A program made the position numbers and the translations under genes. This document shows, in pieces, positions 1,192 to 5,071 of a DNA stretch of 5,071 nt. The notes beneath the pieces were generated by a model that searched no databases, was not told where the DNA came from, and was given only the letters and a program-made list of their open reading frames with translations. This stretch comes from a virus. Taxonomy: Duplodnaviria > Heunggongvirae > Uroviricota > Caudoviricetes. The first letter of the stretch is position 1; the number at the start of each line of letters is the position of its first letter. The DNA is taken from IMG/VR virus record IMGVR_UViG_2663762849_000018. The stretch is one strand, 5' to 3'.

Positions 1192-1935
1192 ATGACAGAG
1201 ACAGAATCAGCGATTCTGGCGCATGCCCGGCGGTGTGCGCCTGCGGAGTCGTGCGGCTTCGTGATAAGCACGCCGGAGGGGGAGCGGTATATCCCTTGTG
1301 TGAATATTTCCGCAGAGCCGGAGGCGTATTTTCGTATCGCACCGGAAGACTGGCTGCGGGCAGAGATGCAGGGGGAGATTGTGGCACTGGTCCACAGTCA
1401 TCCCGGTGGACTGCCCTGGCTGAGCGAGGCCGACCGGCGGCTGCAGATAAAAAGCGCACTGCCCTGGTGGCTGGTCAGCCGGGGTGACATTCACAAATTC
1501 CGCTGCGTTCCGCAACTGACGGGACGGCGCTTTGCGCACGGGGTGACGGACTGTTACACGCTGTTCCGGGATGCATACCATCTGGCAGGCATTGATATGC
1601 CGGATTTTCATCGCGGGGATGACTGGTGGTGCAACGGTCAGAACCTTTACCTGGACAATATGGAGGCAACGGGCTTTTACCGGGTGCCCCTGTCCTCTGC
1701 ACTGCCGGGCGATATCCTGCTGTGCTGCTTCGGCGCATCGGTGGCTAATCATGCCGCCATTTACTGCGGCAACGGTGAGCTGCTTCACCATCTGCCTGAA
1801 CAGCTGAGTAAACGGGAGAGGTATTCCGAAAAATGGCAACGACGAACGCATTCTGTCTGGCGTCACCGCCACTGGCACGCATCTGCCTTCACGGGGATTT
1901 ACAACGATTTGGCCGCCGCCTCAGCCTGTATGTGA
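1192..1935 (+). CDS. K: Tail-tip assembly protein K (JAMM/MPN metalloprotease-like N-terminal domain plus NlpC/P60 C-terminal domain)
   Basis: 247-aa ORF starting 5 nt after the L stop. Strong similarity to lambda gpK as I remember it (MTETESAILAHARRCAPAESCGF…). JAMM motif HSHPGGLPWLSEAD (H68, H70, S78, D81) and NlpC/P60-type Cys/His (C121 in TDCYTLF, H187, H199/H200). 103-nt out-of-frame overlap with the next gene, as I recall for lambda K/I. Confidence 0.9.
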   Translation: MTETESAILAHARRCAPAESCGFVISTPEGERYIPCVNISAEPEAYFRIAPEDWLRAEMQGEIVALVHSHPGGLPWLSEADRRLQIKSALPWWLVSRGDIHKFRCVPQLTGRRFAHGVTDCYTLFRDAYHLAGIDMPDFHRGDDWWCNGQNLYLDNMEATGFYRVPLSSALPGDILLCCFGASVANHAAIYCGNGELLHHLPEQLSKRERYSEKWQRRTHSVWRHRHWHASAFTGIYNDLAAASACM

Positions 1936-2513
1936 ACACGGCAGCGGAAGCCATCCGCGCACTGTCGATGCAGGTGCCGGGCTTTCGCCGTCAGATGAAC
2001 GAAGGCTGGTACCAGATACGCATTGCCGGTGAGGATACGGCACCGGAGGCGGTGTATGCCCGCCTTCACGAACCACTGGGTGAGGGAACGGTTATCCATA
2101 TTGTGCCGCGACTGGCCGGAGCCGGAAAGGGCGGACTACAGATTGTGCTGGGGGCAGCTGCCATTGTGGGGTCTTTCTTCACGGCCGGAGCATCAATGGC
2201 GTTATGGGGTTCAGCCCTGGCAGCCGGTGGTTTTTCTGCCACCACGATGCTGTTTTCACTGGGTGCCAGCATGATACTGGGCGGTGTGGCCCAGATGCTG
2301 GCCCCGAAGGCAAAAACACCGGATTACCGCGCAACGGATAACGGCAGACAGAACACGTATTTTTCCTCACTGGACAACATGATTGCCCAGGGCAACCCGA
2401 TGCCGGTGCCCTACGGTGAAATGCTGGTTGGTTCACGACGTATCTCTCAGGACATCAGCACCCGTGATGAAGGCGGAGACGGAAAGGTGGTGGTTATTGG
2501 TCGACAGGGATAA
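1833..2513 (+). CDS. I: Tail-tip assembly protein I (ubiquitin-like N-terminal domain with Gly/Ala-rich hydrophobic C-terminal region)
   Basis: 226-aa ORF, about the length I recall for lambda gpI and resembling it by memory. GGGAGAGG Shine-Dalgarno-like sequence at 1814-1821. Overlaps the K 3' end by 103 nt in a different frame. Hydrophobic Gly/Ala-rich stretch GLQIVLGAAAIVGSFFTAGASMALWGSALAAGGFSATTMLFSLGASMILGG. Confidence 0.9.
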   Translation: MATTNAFCLASPPLARICLHGDLQRFGRRLSLYVNTAAEAIRALSMQVPGFRRQMNEGWYQIRIAGEDTAPEAVYARLHEPLGEGTVIHIVPRLAGAGKGGLQIVLGAAAIVGSFFTAGASMALWGSALAAGGFSATTMLFSLGASMILGGVAQMLAPKAKTPDYRATDNGRQNTYFSSLDNMIAQGNPMPVPYGEMLVGSRRISQDISTRDEGGDGKVVVIGRQG

Positions 2514-2552
2514 AACATAAAAAAATCCCGCAGTGATCGCGGAGCTGCGGGG
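2514..2552 (-). terminator. Rho-independent terminator oriented for minus-strand transcription, immediately 3' of gene I
   Basis: 7-bp GC-rich stem CCCGCAG (2527-2533) / CTGCGGG (2545-2551) with an 11-nt loop. On the minus strand the stem is followed by AUUUUUUUAUGUUUU (plus-strand A-run 2514-2526). On the plus strand no U-tract follows the stem, so the element is directional. Confidence 0.6.
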
Positions 2553-2622
2553 ACAGACAAATGAAGATTAATGTTAAGGAGTTGTTTTTGTTACTCGGGC
2601 AAAAAAACACTAACGCAGCGAA

Positions 2623-2652
2623 ATTATAAGCGCCACAGTCAGTGTGTGAAAA
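2623..2652 (-). promoter_or_regulatory. Candidate sigma70-type promoter on the minus strand (perfect -10 TATAAT, weak -35 TTTTCA, 18-nt spacer)
   Basis: Minus-strand TATAAT corresponds to plus 2623-2628. A 4/6 match to TTGACA (TTTTCA, plus 2647-2652) lies 18 nt upstream. A transcript from here would run about 95 nt to the terminator at 2514-2552. Sequence inspection only. Confidence 0.25.
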
Positions 2653-2720
2653 TGTGAAGATATTCAGAATTTTTATGCCATTACCGGTTTTAACCAACAG
2701 GATTATCGGTGGGCATGAAA

Positions 2721-2760
2721 GAAAACCCCGGTATCTGCTGATACCGGGGTTTCTGTTTAG
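2721..2760. terminator. Perfect palindromic hairpin, possible bidirectional intrinsic terminator
   Basis: AAACCCCGGTAT (2723-2734) / ATACCGGGGTTT (2741-2752) is a perfect 12-bp inverted repeat around the 6-nt loop CTGCTG. Plus strand continues TTTCTGTTT; minus strand continues TTTTCTTTC after the stem. Confidence 0.45.
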
Positions 2761-2842
2761 CATGGCAGAAATGTGTTTCATGCTTTTCGGGCGAAGGATA
2801 TCCGACTTCTGTACGGAATGGCAAGTGGCGGTTAATTTATTC

Positions 2843-2851
2843 AGGGGAAGG
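2843..2851 (+). promoter_or_regulatory. Shine-Dalgarno-like ribosome-binding site for J
   Basis: AGGGGAAGG ends 4 nt upstream of the J ATG at 2856. Confidence 0.4.
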
Positions 2852-2855
2852 CTGT

Positions 2856-5071
2856 ATGGGAAAAGGTGGCGGTAAGGCACACACGCCTCGTGAGGCGAAG
2901 GATAATCTCAAATCCACGCAGATGATGAGCGTGATTGATGCGATTGGTGAGGGACCCATTGAAGGTCCGGTGAAAGGCCTGCAGAGTATTCTGGTGAACA
3001 AAACCCCGCTGACGGACACGGACGGTAATCCCGTGATACACGGTGTGACCGCGGTCTGGCGCGCCGGGGAGCAGGAGCAGACACCACCGGAAGGCTTTGA
3101 GTCCTCCGGAGCTGAAACTGTACTGGGTGTGGAAGTGACGAAGGCAAAACCGGTGACACGCACCATTACGTCAGCGAACATTGACCGCCTGCGGGTGACC
3201 TTCGGGGTGCAGTCACTGGTGGAGACCACCTCAAAGGGTGACCGTAACCCGACGTCTGTCCGCCTGCTGATTCAGCTTGAGCGTGGTGGTAAATGGATGA
3301 CGGAAAAGGATGTCACCATTAACGGCAAGACCACCTCGCAGTTCCTGGCGTCGGTGATTCTGGATAATCTGCCGCCCCGGCCCTTTAACATCCGGATGGT
3401 CAGGGAGACGGCGGACAGCACCACGGACCAGCTGCAGAATAAGACGCTCTGGTCGTCATACACCGAAATCATCGATGTGAAACAGTGCTACCCGAACACG
3501 GCCATTGTGGGGCTGCAGGTGGATGCGGAGCAGTTCGGCGGCCAGCAGATGACGGTGAACTACCATATCCGCGGTCGCATCATCCAGGTGCCGTCAAACT
3601 ATGACCCGGAAAAACGCACGTACAGTGGTATCTGGGACGGCAGTCTGAAACCGGCATACAGCAACAACCCGGCCTGGTGTCTGTGGGACATGCTGACTCA
3701 CCCGCGCTACGGGATGGGAAAACGTCTGGGGGCGGCGGATGTGGACAAGTGGGCGCTGTATGCCATCGGGCAGTACTGCGACCAGACGGTCCCGGATGGT
3801 TTCGGGGGCACAGAGCCGCGGATGACCTTTAATGCGTACCTGGCACAACAGCGTAAGGCGTGGGACGTTCTCAGTGATTTCTGCTCGGCGATGCGCTGTA
3901 TGCCGGTATGGAACGGCCAGACGCTGACGTTCGTTCAGGACCGCCCGTCGGATGTGGTGTGGCCGTACACCAACAGCGATGTGGTGGTGGATGATAACGG
4001 CGTGGGGTTCCGCTACAGCTTCAGTGCCCTGAAGGACCGGCACACGGCGGTGGAGGTGAATTACACCGACCCGCAGAACGGCTGGCAGACCTCCACGGAA
4101 CTGGTGGAAGACCCGGAAGCCATACTGCGCTACGGACGCAATCTGCTGAAGATGGATGCGTTTGGCTGTACCAGCCGCGGTCAGGCTCACCGTGCAGGTC
4201 TGTGGGTGATAAAGACCGAACTGCTGGAAACGCAGACGGTGGACTTCACGCTCGGGTCACAGGGGCTGCGTCACACACCGGGTGACATTATTGAAATCTG
4301 TGATAACGACTATGCCGGGACTATGACCGGCGGACGTATCCTGTCCATTGATGCTGCCACCCGCACCCTGACGCTGGACCGTGAGGTTACCCTGCCGGAG
4401 ACAGGTACATCGGCGGTGAACCTGATTAACGGCAGCGGTAAGCCGGTGAGTGTGGACATCACCGCACACCCCGCGCCGGACCGGATACAGGTCAGTACCC
4501 TGCCTGATGGTGTGGAGACATACGGTGTGTGGGGACTCTCCCTGCCGTCACTGCGCCGTCGCCTGTTCCGCTGTGTCTCCATCCGGGAAAACACGGACGG
4601 CACCTTTGCCATCACGGCGGTGCAGCACGTACCGGAAAAAGAAGCCATTGTGGATAACGGAGCCCGCTTTGAGCCGCAGTCAGGCACCCTGAACAGCGTT
4701 ATCCCACCGGCAGTACAGCACCTCACGGTGGAGGTGAGCGCAGCTGACAGCCAGTATCTGGCGCTGGCGAAATGGGACACGCCGAGGGTGGTGAAGGGCG
4801 TGCGCTTCAGTCTGCGCCTGACCAGTGGAAGCGATGAGAACAGCCGCCTGCTGACCACCGCCATCACTGCCGATACGGAGCACCGTTTCAGTGGCCTGCC
4901 TCTCGGGGAATACACCCTGACGGTCAGGGCGATAAACAGCTACGGCCAGCAGGGCGAACCGGCCACCACCACGTTCCGGATTAATGCGCCTGCAGCACCG
5001 GCCACCATTGAGCTGACGCCGGGGTATTTTCAGATAACGGCGGTACCGCGTCTTGCGGTGTATGACCCGAC
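2856..5071 (+). CDS. J: Host specificity protein J (tail-tip / central tail fibre), N-terminal 738 codons; 3' end beyond window
   Basis: ATG at 2856-2858 preceded by a purine-rich SD-like GGGGAAGG. Frame 3 is open to the window end. Translation MGKGGGKAHTPREAKDNLKSTQMMSVIDAIGEGPIEGP…TEIIDVKQCYPNTAIVG…AWCLWDMLTHPRYGMGKRLGAADVDKWALY…LFRCVSIREN…ITAVQHVPEKEAIVDNGA… is collinear with the N-terminal region of lambda gpJ as I remember it. Not listed in the ORF track because it has no stop inside the window. Confidence 0.92.
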   Translation, partial: MGKGGGKAHTPREAKDNLKSTQMMSVIDAIGEGPIEGPVKGLQSILVNKTPLTDTDGNPVIHGVTAVWRAGEQEQTPPEGFESSGAETVLGVEVTKAKPVTRTITSANIDRLRVTFGVQSLVETTSKGDRNPTSVRLLIQLERGGKWMTEKDVTINGKTTSQFLASVILDNLPPRPFNIRMVRETADSTTDQLQNKTLWSSYTEIIDVKQCYPNTAIVGLQVDAEQFGGQQMTVNYHIRGRIIQVPSNYDPEKRTYSGIWDGSLKPAYSNNPAWCLWDMLTHPRYGMGKRLGAADVDKWALYAIGQYCDQTVPDGFGGTEPRMTFNAYLAQQRKAWDVLSDFCSAMRCMPVWNGQTLTFVQDRPSDVVWPYTNSDVVVDDNGVGFRYSFSALKDRHTAVEVNYTDPQNGWQTSTELVEDPEAILRYGRNLLKMDAFGCTSRGQAHRAGLWVIKTELLETQTVDFTLGSQGLRHTPGDIIEICDNDYAGTMTGGRILSIDAATRTLTLDREVTLPETGTSAVNLINGSGKPVSVDITAHPAPDRIQVSTLPDGVETYGVWGLSLPSLRRRLFRCVSIRENTDGTFAITAVQHVPEKEAIVDNGARFEPQSGTLNSVIPPAVQHLTVEVSAADSQYLALAKWDTPRVVKGVRFSLRLTSGSDENSRLLTTAITADTEHRFSGLPLGEYTLTVRAINSYGQQGEPATTTFRINAPAAPATIELTPGYFQITAVPRLAVYDP

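Follow-up and report, generated by a model that had tools for sequence, protein, structure and literature searches.

The spacer between tail genes I and J of a defective lambdoid prophage carries an allele of the small RNA gene pasB beside a lineage-specific segment with a candidate terminator

Introduction

PasB (pathogenicity-associated sRNA B) was found by RIL-seq in prophage PP6 of EPEC O127:H6 E2348/69, with confirmation by a northern blot whose band had the size predicted (Pearl Mizrahi et al. 2021, PMC8550237). The RNA is abundant, and northern blotting and RNA-seq show it to be approximately 83 nt in length and dependent on Hfq for its stability; it ranks among the top RIL-seq interactors, taking the second place in the chimera in nearly every case, with many partners drawn from both core and accessory genes (PMC8550237). 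Its gene lies on the minus strand of the E2348/69 genome, at 1466343-1466261, between the homologues of the lambdoid tail genes I and J. The distribution of PasB was subsequently surveyed by Zhu, Shabalina and Storz (2026; bioRxiv 10.64898/2026.05.13.724894), who described a common variant at position 27, PasB-2, and in whose study the seed region is a prediction only. A search of the literature for small RNAs encoded at the I-J junction, or for later studies of PasB, returned nothing beyond these two papers.

Other Hfq-associated RNAs of lambdoid prophages are known from EHEC O157:H7 Sakai, where EcOnc22, EcOnc23 and EcOnc24 were recovered by crosslinking to Hfq (Tree et al. 2014, PMC4104026, Table S2). 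EcOnc22 yields a northern band of approximately 85 nt and is destabilised without hfq (PMC4104026).

In the current study, we analysed the I-J junction in a 5,071-nucleotide stretch of DNA (hereafter the window) from the Caudoviricetes record IMGVR_UViG_2663762849_000018. An initial annotation, made from the sequence without database searches, had regarded the spacer at this junction as a single moron-like insert. The spacer is here divided, on sequence comparison, into two modules: an I-proximal part (2514 to approximately 2677) and a J-proximal part (2678-2855). It is very likely that the former is pasB and the latter a lineage-specific segment with a candidate bidirectional terminator. Since pasB is already known, the main finding of this study is not a new one.

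Results and Discussion

Extent and composition of the I-J spacer

The spacer is delimited by two tail genes:
1833-2513, plus strand: tail assembly gene I (ORF list; Pfam Lambda_tail_I, E = 6.8e-16; annotation of the E2348/69 and PPompW homologues)
2856-5071, plus strand: tail tip/host specificity gene J (Pfam FNIII-A_GpJ, Phage-tail_3 and Ig_J; homologue annotation)

Gene I, the upstream flank, ends with a stop codon at 2511-2513 and possesses an alternative GTG start at 1932, which would give the 582-bp form annotated in E2348/69, while J, the downstream flank, starts with the ATG at 2856 and runs off the end of the window. The intervening 342 bp (2514-2855) have a GC content of 43.3%, compared to 59.0% for K and I together and 59.9% for J, in agreement with the AT-rich spacer originally reported, and the corresponding gap in lambda is indeed short, at 60 bp (lambda 15445-15504). 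The length of the spacer is thus unusual relative to lambda, as had been proposed, but it is normal within its own clade: in 78 relatives chosen by similarity of the I protein the spacers all measure 235-344 bp or approximately 851 bp, and none (0/78) is of the 60-bp lambda type. Alignment of spacers across relatives, which the initial annotation had suggested as a means of defining the insertion, placed a boundary at approximately 2677 relative to E2348/69.

The I-proximal module encodes an allele of PasB

Window positions 2490-2677 align without gaps to the I-J spacer of E2348/69, columns 87-180 of the alignment being identical, and similarity to that spacer stops at approximately 2677. The GC content of this module is 39%, as against 59-60% in the flanks. 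The following elements were located within it:
2519-2601, minus strand: PasB small RNA in its published 83-nt form (alignment to NC_011601 1466261-1466343; match to the northern probe)
2519-2551, minus strand: pasB intrinsic terminator (terminator scan; fold; helix conserved in 17 alleles; 3' end mapped from E2348/69)
2623-2650, minus strand: pasB sigma-70 promoter (promoter scan, 11/12; invariant alignment columns 87-180)
2602-2616, minus strand: predicted 5' extension of the primary PasB transcript (position of the -10 box; conservation of 2611-2616)
2561-2583, minus strand: unstructured conserved stretch AACUCCUUAACAUUAAUCUUCAU (conserved blocks in 17 diverse alleles; no conserved pairing)

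The published northern probe for PasB, AATCCCGCAGTGATCGCGGAGCT, matches 2524-2546 at 23 of 23 positions with no mismatches, and the RNA encoded here is identical to E2348/69 PasB at 81 of 83 positions without gaps, the substitutions being C27A and G33A. The first of these is the PasB-2 change and falls at window position 2575; because the position-27 polymorphism sits exactly there, the register of the alignment is confirmed. As in E2348/69, pasB lies antisense to the tail genes, in the gap between I and J.

The terminator that had been noted as oriented against the tail operon was recovered on the minus strand by consensus scanning. Its stem pairs CCCGCAG (2551-2545) with CTGCGGG (2533-2527) over 7 bp around an 11-nt loop and is followed by an A and seven U residues (2525-2519), the 3' end of PasB lying 6 nt from the stop codon of I. 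Covariation analysis of 17 pasB alleles identified this stem as the sole conserved helix, the remainder of the RNA being unpaired, and one allele (L144) carries two compensatory pairs within it. The TATAAT box of the initial annotation is likewise present on the minus strand, at 2628-2623, where it constitutes the -10 element of a predicted promoter with a -35 box TTCACA (2650-2645) and a gap of 16 nt; the interval 2576-2669, in which this promoter is contained, is 100% identical to E2348/69. Within 2300-3000, consensus scanning returned three promoter-like sites where 0.8 would be expected, and while such matches alone represent weak evidence, the features of the spacer amount to more than chance because they are homologous to an experimentally validated RNA gene.

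Judged from the -10 box, transcription would start near G2616, 7 nt past the box, to produce an RNA of 98 nt, and CUGCGUUA at this predicted 5' end is conserved. The published 5' end, which corresponds to window position 2601, was estimated from read coverage (PMC8550237) and lies 15 nt downstream of the predicted start. This discrepancy implies either processing of PasB or an error in one of these estimates.

The suggestion of a small RNA was therefore well placed, in that the I-proximal half of the spacer is a self-contained antisense unit encoding the already described PasB. The moron-like character ascribed to the spacer holds for this half, where extra DNA of lower GC content separates genes that are adjacent in lambda and carries a predicted promoter and terminator of its own; it does not hold for the spacer as one insert, as two modules are present. 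Even the pasB module is moron-like in architecture only, its product being an RNA and not a host-benefiting protein. The Rfam search proposed at the outset gave no match to the spacer: when the entire window was scanned at E values up to 1, the only matches were two chance snoRNA-like ones, both inside J (2918-2975).

A second explanation for such a junction is a decayed protein-coding moron, or a small protein gene on the minus strand. A minus-strand frame is open over 113 of the 114 spacer codons, an extent reached by 48 of 5000 shuffles; some phage records annotate hypothetical ORFs at this spacer; and Sakai Sp10 and 15 of the 78 relatives have a genuine protein moron, sodC, at this junction, likewise on the minus strand. 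The open frame, however, crosses a promoter and two terminators and is broken in each of 8 relatives, and the indels that separate alleles are not multiples of three. The ORFs of the phage records are on the plus strand and not the minus strand, that annotated in phage ASU11 has no ribosome binding site, and a natural 47-nt deletion would shift its frame. Pfam searches with the 128-aa minus-strand and 77-aa plus-strand ORFs of the spacer returned no match, and the J-proximal module bears no similarity to the sodC insert. A coding spacer is therefore highly improbable, which accords with the original view that it holds no convincing protein gene.

Predicted expression and action of PasB

In the lysogen, pasB would be transcribed on the minus strand from its own sigma-70 promoter and end at the intrinsic terminator, giving an RNA of 83-98 nt. 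The E2348/69 allele, for which expression in a lysogen has been shown, is abundant, needs Hfq to be stable and becomes ligated on Hfq to numerous mRNAs; the most likely role of PasB is therefore to regulate host and island mRNAs in trans, by Hfq-dependent base pairing. Pairing would occur through the unstructured conserved stretch AACUCCUUAACAUUAAUCUUCAU, which contains an anti-Shine-Dalgarno-like CUCCUU and is likely the base-pairing (seed) region. The allele in the window differs from that of E2348/69 within this putative seed, as both C27A (shared with PasB-2) and G33A fall inside it. In other respects the two loci correspond in I-J position, antisense orientation and identical promoter and terminator, and they differ in that the spacer here is 342 bp as opposed to 240 bp, its J-proximal part being a different module.

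PasB might alternatively act mainly in cis, by base complementarity to the late mRNA between I and J, directing cleavage of that mRNA or lowering J expression; in a variant of this idea, the flood of late mRNA following induction could soak up PasB and so release host targets. In all alleles and spacer types examined, the gene occurs at this one junction and runs antisense to the tail operon, its position being fixed even though the RNA body is variable between alleles (approximately 75% identity), and perfect complementarity to the late polycistronic transcript follows from the sequence. Against these points, RIL-seq lists many trans partners for PasB among core and accessory genes, the RNA overlaps neither the I coding sequence nor the J ribosome binding site (3' end at 2519; Shine-Dalgarno sequence at 2843-2851), and the defective prophage in the window has no intact late operon on which to act. 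We consider a principally cis-acting role unlikely, and favour Hfq-dependent action in trans.

The prophage in the window is defective, unlike that of E2348/69, with its endolysin fused to L, yet pasB is intact.

A conserved block upstream of the pasB promoter

Conservation was assessed in 36 unique spacers that were picked by their I protein and not by any motif in the block itself, and a further element emerged:
2648-2676, no strand assigned: block upstream of the pasB -35 box (conservation 0.96-0.97 in 36 unique spacers)

This block is conserved about as well as the pasB terminator, is second only to 2524-2533, and is also kept in phages in which the PasB body is only approximately 75% identical. 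It is possibly a binding site for a regulator. A CRP-like core, TGTGA-N6-TCAGA, at 2653-2668 matches TGTGA-N6-TCACA at 9 of 10 positions, although at least one such site arose in 35 of 200 shuffles of the window, and the core is centred at -44.5 from the predicted start, whereas the canonical positions are -41.5 and -61.5.

The J-proximal module and its hairpin

The remainder of the spacer comprises the following:
2678-2855, no strand assigned: module 2, the J-proximal segment of the 342-bp spacer type (end of similarity to E2348/69; phage and genome matches)
2713-2783, no strand assigned: nested inverted repeats (repeat finder; folds of -24 kcal/mol on either strand)
2795-2824, minus strand: weak promoter-like site TTGCCA-18-TATCCT (promoter scan, 9/12)

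Module 2 is 178 bp in length, almost invariant and restricted to Escherichia, and it includes the J leader with its ribosome binding site, AGGGGAAGG (2843-2851). The sequence comparisons indicate that it has replaced the J-proximal portion of the spacer in a lineage-specific manner. The perfect 12-bp palindrome of the initial annotation is present, with arms one base longer than stated: 13 nt each (2723-2735 and 2740-2752), 100% complementary and separated by a TGCT loop. Its attribution to a moron-like insert was not borne out, as it belongs to this separate J-proximal segment and lambda has a terminator-like hairpin at the same position. The hairpin is nested inside an 8-bp pair (2713-2720 and 2776-2783) and is followed by T-rich tracts on both strands (TTTCTGTTT on the plus and TTTTCTTTC on the minus strand), and the folds that contain it are more stable than those of shuffled sequences, with z = -4.75 on the plus strand and z = -5.92 on the minus strand (2790-2712).

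A rule-based terminator scan made no call at this hairpin, despite a 13-bp perfect stem of -24 kcal/mol followed by UUUCUGUUU (plus) or UUUUCUUUC (minus); possibly, some of the T-tract is taken up into the stem. Lambda and spacer types A, B and C have hairpins of -15 to -24 kcal/mol with T-tracts a short distance upstream of J, and those of lambda and of types A and B, which are terminator-like on the plus strand, occupy the position of the module 2 hairpin. We infer that the module 2 hairpin is a candidate bidirectional intrinsic terminator, a second small RNA being less likely. Plus-strand RNA polymerase that lacks the Q antitermination modification would be kept from entering J, and on the minus strand antisense transcripts emerging from J would be stopped before they cross the pasB promoter. 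Module 2 is present in ASU11, a phage recovered by mitomycin C induction, and is therefore presumably compatible with tail gene expression. Only six near-identical sequence variants of the module were found in 112 viral loci, so that its conservation is uninformative as to function and covariation analysis is impossible.

The competing explanation is that module 2 represents a second, undescribed minus-strand small RNA gene, tandem with and upstream of pasB, in which the weak promoter and the hairpin would hypothetically give an RNA of approximately 75 nt that starts at around 2788 and ends at around 2713 with the hairpin and UUUUCUUUC. A promoter-like site matching at 9 of 12 positions, a strong terminator-like hairpin with a U-rich minus-strand tail (fold z = -5.92), a layout of 5' hairpin, A/U-rich linker and terminator that resembles Hfq-binding small RNAs, and the richness of prophage intergenic regions in small RNAs all speak for such a gene. 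The -10 box TATCCT, however, is poor and matches of this kind arise by chance (0.8 expected per 700 bp), expression evidence was not found in the literature searched, Rfam returned no match, the module is too invariant for covariation, and a natural variant (L202) deletes the hairpin. On balance a second RNA gene is quite unlikely, and similarly improbable is the more elaborate proposal in which such a gene in tandem with pasB is combined with a CRP-like upstream block that would link PasB to carbon status. If a second gene did exist, this widespread prophage type would have a two-sRNA island at its I-J junction. A candidate bidirectional terminator remains the preferred reading of the hairpin.

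The module was also considered as a relic of the sodC moron, and this was rejected as it has no similarity to the Sp10 insert.

Relationship to EHEC RNAs and other prophage systems

EcOnc22, EcOnc23 and EcOnc24 map to the spacers between I and J in Sakai Sp15, Sp14 and Sp11, antisense to the tail operon, and they land on the PasB-homologous body once the offset between genome versions (about +128 to +146, as estimated from AgvB) is corrected. The DNA of these spacers aligns with window 2514-2679 at approximately 75% identity. They differ from the locus described here in an RNA body of approximately 75% identity, in their -35 and -10 boxes and in belonging to the 240-bp type B spacer. Subject to the estimated coordinate offset, EcOnc22-24 very probably belong to the PasB family and appear to be diverged alleles of PasB; if this is correct, the family extends to Stx1 phages. 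The link is stated in neither paper, and Table S6 of the PasB study lists no EHEC homologue (PMC8550237). EcOnc54 of Sakai Sp6 was considered as a further Hfq-bound RNA of an I-J spacer and was discarded, as it lies near L and an antirepressor gene and not at the I-J junction.

The sodC (Cu/Zn superoxide dismutase) moron of O157 Sp10 resembles pasB in being cargo at the same junction and on the same antisense strand, and its spacer shares the I-proximal pasB-like body and terminator. It differs in being protein-coding, in a spacer length of 851 bp and in the lack of similarity to module 2. As the pasB promoter and start site have been replaced in Sp10, the pasB-like sequence there would be at most a 3' UTR.

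AgvB and AsxR (Rfam RF02702 and RF02703) are small RNAs that, like PasB, are encoded by prophages, bind Hfq, are expressed in the lysogen and influence host regulation, but they occupy a moron site downstream of PR', measure 51-60 nt and sponge the core small RNAs GcvB and FnrS. An AgvB-like GcvB sponge, suggested by the CA-rich AACAAAAACAAC, was rejected on the grounds that AgvB sits at PR' and that RF02702 has no match here, while the same model recovered AgvB of Sakai Sp10, used as a control, with 96.5 bits.

The 60-bp spacer of lambda has in common with the present one a GC-rich plus-strand hairpin and T-tract just upstream of the J ribosome binding site, and this hairpin aligns with the position of the J-proximal hairpin of longer spacers. 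Lambda differs in the absence of a pasB module, and its hairpin is unrelated in sequence to the 13-bp hairpin of the window.

Distribution of the spacer modules

Among the 78 relatives, pasB occupies the I-J position in 63, and sodC with a promoterless pasB remnant in the other 15; the junction behaves as a cargo slot for antisense units (pasB alone, or sodC together with the remnant) and is never empty in this phage clade. Matches to the spacer were obtained in 1612 of 5426 complete E. coli genomes. The window as a whole is not contained at high identity in any complete E. coli RefSeq genome, the best full-length match having approximately 97% identity from position 584 onward. Module 2 is present in 1446 of the 5426, in all cases at 95% identity or above, and the 342-bp spacer type is carried by about a quarter of complete E. 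coli genomes, CFT073 included. The module is covered by only 13 of 147 matching phage records, and E2348/69, VT1-Sakai and most Stx phages lack it.

A blastn comparison with phages and E. coli genomes, in which all matches were at 95% identity or above, detected no copy of module 2 outside this junction, the second place reported per phage record being the palindrome matching itself. When species-representative genomes were scanned for the hairpin, the one relevant match was in Escherichia albertii, the others apparently being chance palindromes in unrelated taxa.

pasB in the I-J spacer

The AT-rich I-J spacer reported in the initial annotation spans 342 bp (2514-2855) with a GC content of 43.3%, compared with 59.0% for K plus I and 59.9% for J, and the lambda gap, which had been put at about 60 bp, is indeed 60 bp long. 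The lambdoid tail genes around it were assigned from the ORF list and Pfam.

1192-1935, plus strand: K
1833-2513, plus strand: I
From 2856 past the window end, plus strand: J

The terminator described as opposing the tail operon is a minus-strand stem-loop that leads into a T-run and adjoins the I stop codon, while the TATAAT box lies on the minus strand at 2628-2623 with a TTCACA partner at 16-nt spacing (11/12 match). As promoter and terminator share one orientation and are approximately 100 nt apart, a small RNA antisense to the tail operon was predicted. AgvB, first considered because of a CA-rich stretch, was rejected since it occupies the moron site downstream of PR' and the Rfam search returned no match to the spacer.

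On sequence grounds, the I-proximal half of the spacer is pasB. PasB of E2348/69 is an 83-nt RNA encoded on the minus strand of NC_011601 (1466343-1466261) and was detected using the northern probe AATCCCGCAGTGATCGCGGAGCT (Table S6, Pearl Mizrahi et al. 2021, PMC8550237), which matches window positions 2524-2546 with no mismatches. In E2348/69 the gene is located between the I homologue (end 1466255) and gpJ (start 1466496), and the alignment of the two spacers is gap-free between the end of I and approximately 2677. They are identical at 2576-2669, a stretch that takes in the promoter together with part of its upstream block. The published PasB ends map to 2601->2519 on the minus strand, and the window and E2348/69 RNAs differ by only two substitutions, C27A and G33A. 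That PasB and PasB-2 differ at position 27 (bioRxiv 10.64898/2026.05.13.724894), corresponding to window position 2575, confirms the register. From the -10 box, a primary transcript of 98 nt is predicted with a start near G2616, 15 nt from the published 5' end, which is itself an estimate from read coverage.

A protein product was rejected, as the initial annotation had anticipated in finding no convincing protein gene: the minus-strand frame that is open across 113 of the 114 spacer codons (a level reached by 48 of 5000 shuffles) is interrupted in each of the eight relatives tested, has no Pfam match and passes through the promoter and two terminators, and indels between alleles are not multiples of three. 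The suggestion of a small RNA is right for half of the spacer, the I-proximal part that is pasB.

PasB of E2348/69 is seen in northern blots at the expected size, depends on Hfq for stability, is expressed more highly under the non-activating than the activating condition, and is a high-ranking RIL-seq interactor, nearly always as the second RNA of chimeras (Pearl Mizrahi et al. 2021, PMC8550237). When 17 diverse alleles from phage records and IMG/VR contigs were aligned, the terminator helix emerged as the only conserved helix, with two compensatory pairs, both in one allele, no pairing being predicted for the remainder of the RNA. Among these unpaired positions, the conserved blocks are CUGCGUUA at the 5' end, a run of U residues and, at 2583-2561, AACUCCUUA...UUAAUCUUCAU, which includes the anti-Shine-Dalgarno-like CUCCUU. 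PasB would be expected to act in trans on mRNAs with Hfq, employing the 2583-2561 stretch as a putative seed; both differences between the window and E2348/69 alleles fall within this stretch.

The homologous Hfq-crosslinked RNAs EcOnc22, EcOnc23 and EcOnc24 of EHEC Sakai, of which EcOnc22 gives a northern band of approximately 85 nt and is destabilised without hfq (Tree et al. 2014, PMC4104026), map to the I-J spacers of the Sakai prophages Sp15, Sp14 and Sp11 (retrieved loci L013, L014 and L015), respectively, antisense to the tail genes. The coordinates of Tree et al. refer to an older genome version, and an offset of approximately +128 to +146 was estimated using AgvB as a ruler (published peak versus Rfam match in the current record). 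The offset-corrected peaks coincide with the PasB-homologous body, which suggests, insofar as the estimated offset is correct, that EcOnc22-24 are PasB alleles. An EHEC homologue of PasB is not listed in the 2021 table (Pearl Mizrahi et al., PMC8550237), nor elsewhere in the PasB papers.

The I-J junction among relatives

A phage search revealed that the first ~166 nt of the spacer are common to many Stx1, Stx2 and other lambdoid phages (~75-99% identity) and that the sequence beyond is not shared with them. In an alignment of ten such I-J spacers with that of lambda, the pasB module is missing from lambda, which retains only a J-proximal hairpin, so that pasB is an insert relative to lambda. 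The moron-like insert proposed for the whole spacer corresponds, in architecture, to pasB, which covers only those ~166 nt, the J-proximal portion (module 2, 2678-2855) being separate.

Relatives were selected by I-protein similarity alone (80 IMG/VR loci, 96-99% identity), and 78 of these include J. The spacer measures 235-260 bp in 40 of the 78, with pasB present, and 338-344 bp in 23, with pasB and the window's hairpin; in the other 15 it measures 851-852 bp, equalling the sodC spacer of Sakai prophage Sp10, and the pasB promoter block is absent. None of the 78 has a lambda-like spacer. The long spacer is the rule within this phage clade and not, as had been supposed, an oddity. The 342-bp query was matched in 1612 of 5426 complete E. 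coli genomes.

At the Sp10 junction (851 bp; locus L012 38484-39334, NC_002695.2 1963484-1964334), sodC (ECs_1989) on the minus strand precedes a body and terminator that resemble those of pasB; their promoter and start site have been replaced, and this sequence could represent a sodC 3' UTR. The junction can be regarded as a cargo slot. In two IMG/VR contigs with type-B (240-bp) spacers, L148 and L154, the interval from the plus-strand hairpin to the J ribosome binding site contains the heptamer CATCAGA in two to four tandem copies, and spacer length varies with copy number in 7-nt steps. In two others, L168 and L084, what lies downstream of the -35 box of pasB has given way to unrelated DNA.

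The initial observation is confirmed and the finding is real; pasB is already known and the spacer is typical of its clade.

Module 2

Similarity to E2348/69 stops at approximately 2677, leaving 178 bp. This module is present in 1446 of 5426 complete genomes, CFT073 among them, every match having at least 95% identity; Escherichia albertii is its sole carrier among species-representative genomes. Just 13 phage records contain it, including that of ASU11, a phage recovered by mitomycin C induction, and only six variants occur among 112 viral loci. Module 2 is joined to PasB alleles of at least two kinds, approximately 25% different from each other, which places a recombination boundary between the two modules.

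Module 2 contains nested inverted repeats. The palindrome noted at 2721-2754 is a perfect inverted repeat, as described, with arms of 13 rather than 12 nt (2723-2735 and 2740-2752) and a 4-nt loop. Either strand of this hairpin folds at -24 kcal/mol, and T-rich tracts follow on both. On the plus strand, lambda and the type A and type B spacers possess a GC-rich hairpin and T-tract at the equivalent position immediately before J, and module 2 is best read as a candidate bidirectional version of this J-proximal terminator. A rule-based terminator scan did not call the 13-bp hairpin, and the invariance of the module gives no leverage on this reading. The promoter scan also returned a feature of this module.

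2824-2795, minus strand: weak promoter-like site (9/12 match)

This site would permit a second, minus-strand RNA of approximately 75 nt ending at the 13-bp hairpin, which we consider improbable beside the bidirectional terminator. Natural disruptions occur in two IMG/VR contigs. In L202 the 13-bp hairpin has been lost through a 47-nt deletion bounded by AGAAA repeats, the 8-bp GCATGAAA/TTTCATGC hairpin being retained. L025 carries an insertion near window position 2705, apparently an insertion sequence since a transposase-like ORF begins in it.

The block upstream of the pasB -35 box

Scored on spacers selected by I protein rather than by motif, 2648-2676 reaches about the same conservation as the terminator, with only the terminator block 2524-2533 scoring higher, and its conservation extends to spacers with a divergent -35 box and RNA body. 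It includes a CRP-like core, TGTGA-N6-TCAGA (2653-2668), with one mismatch to the CRP core and centred at approximately -44.5 from the predicted start, a non-canonical position. If the non-activating medium is glucose-poor, as we presume, the higher level of PasB in that condition would fit catabolite control, which is offered only as a lead.

State of the prophage

One ORF in the window bears on the integrity of the prophage.

149-1186: lysozyme-L fusion ORF of 345 aa, with tail protein L (aa 146-343) in frame after a phage lysozyme domain (aa 33-147)

Intact prophages resemble the window only from approximately 579-584 onward, which, together with this fusion, indicates that a large deletion runs from the endolysin gene into L and has taken out Rz, the terminase and head genes and the majority of the tail genes. 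Consequently the prophage is defective, with pasB still intact. Weak matches to the archaeal C/D-box snoRNA models sR32 and sR28 at 2918-2975, inside the J coding sequence, were judged to be due to chance (E = 0.24-0.56, far below gathering scores). The longest I ORF shares approximately 100 nt with the end of K (1833-1935), and the annotated I start differs among close relatives, with 681-bp forms starting at ATG 1833 and 582-bp forms at GTG 1932.
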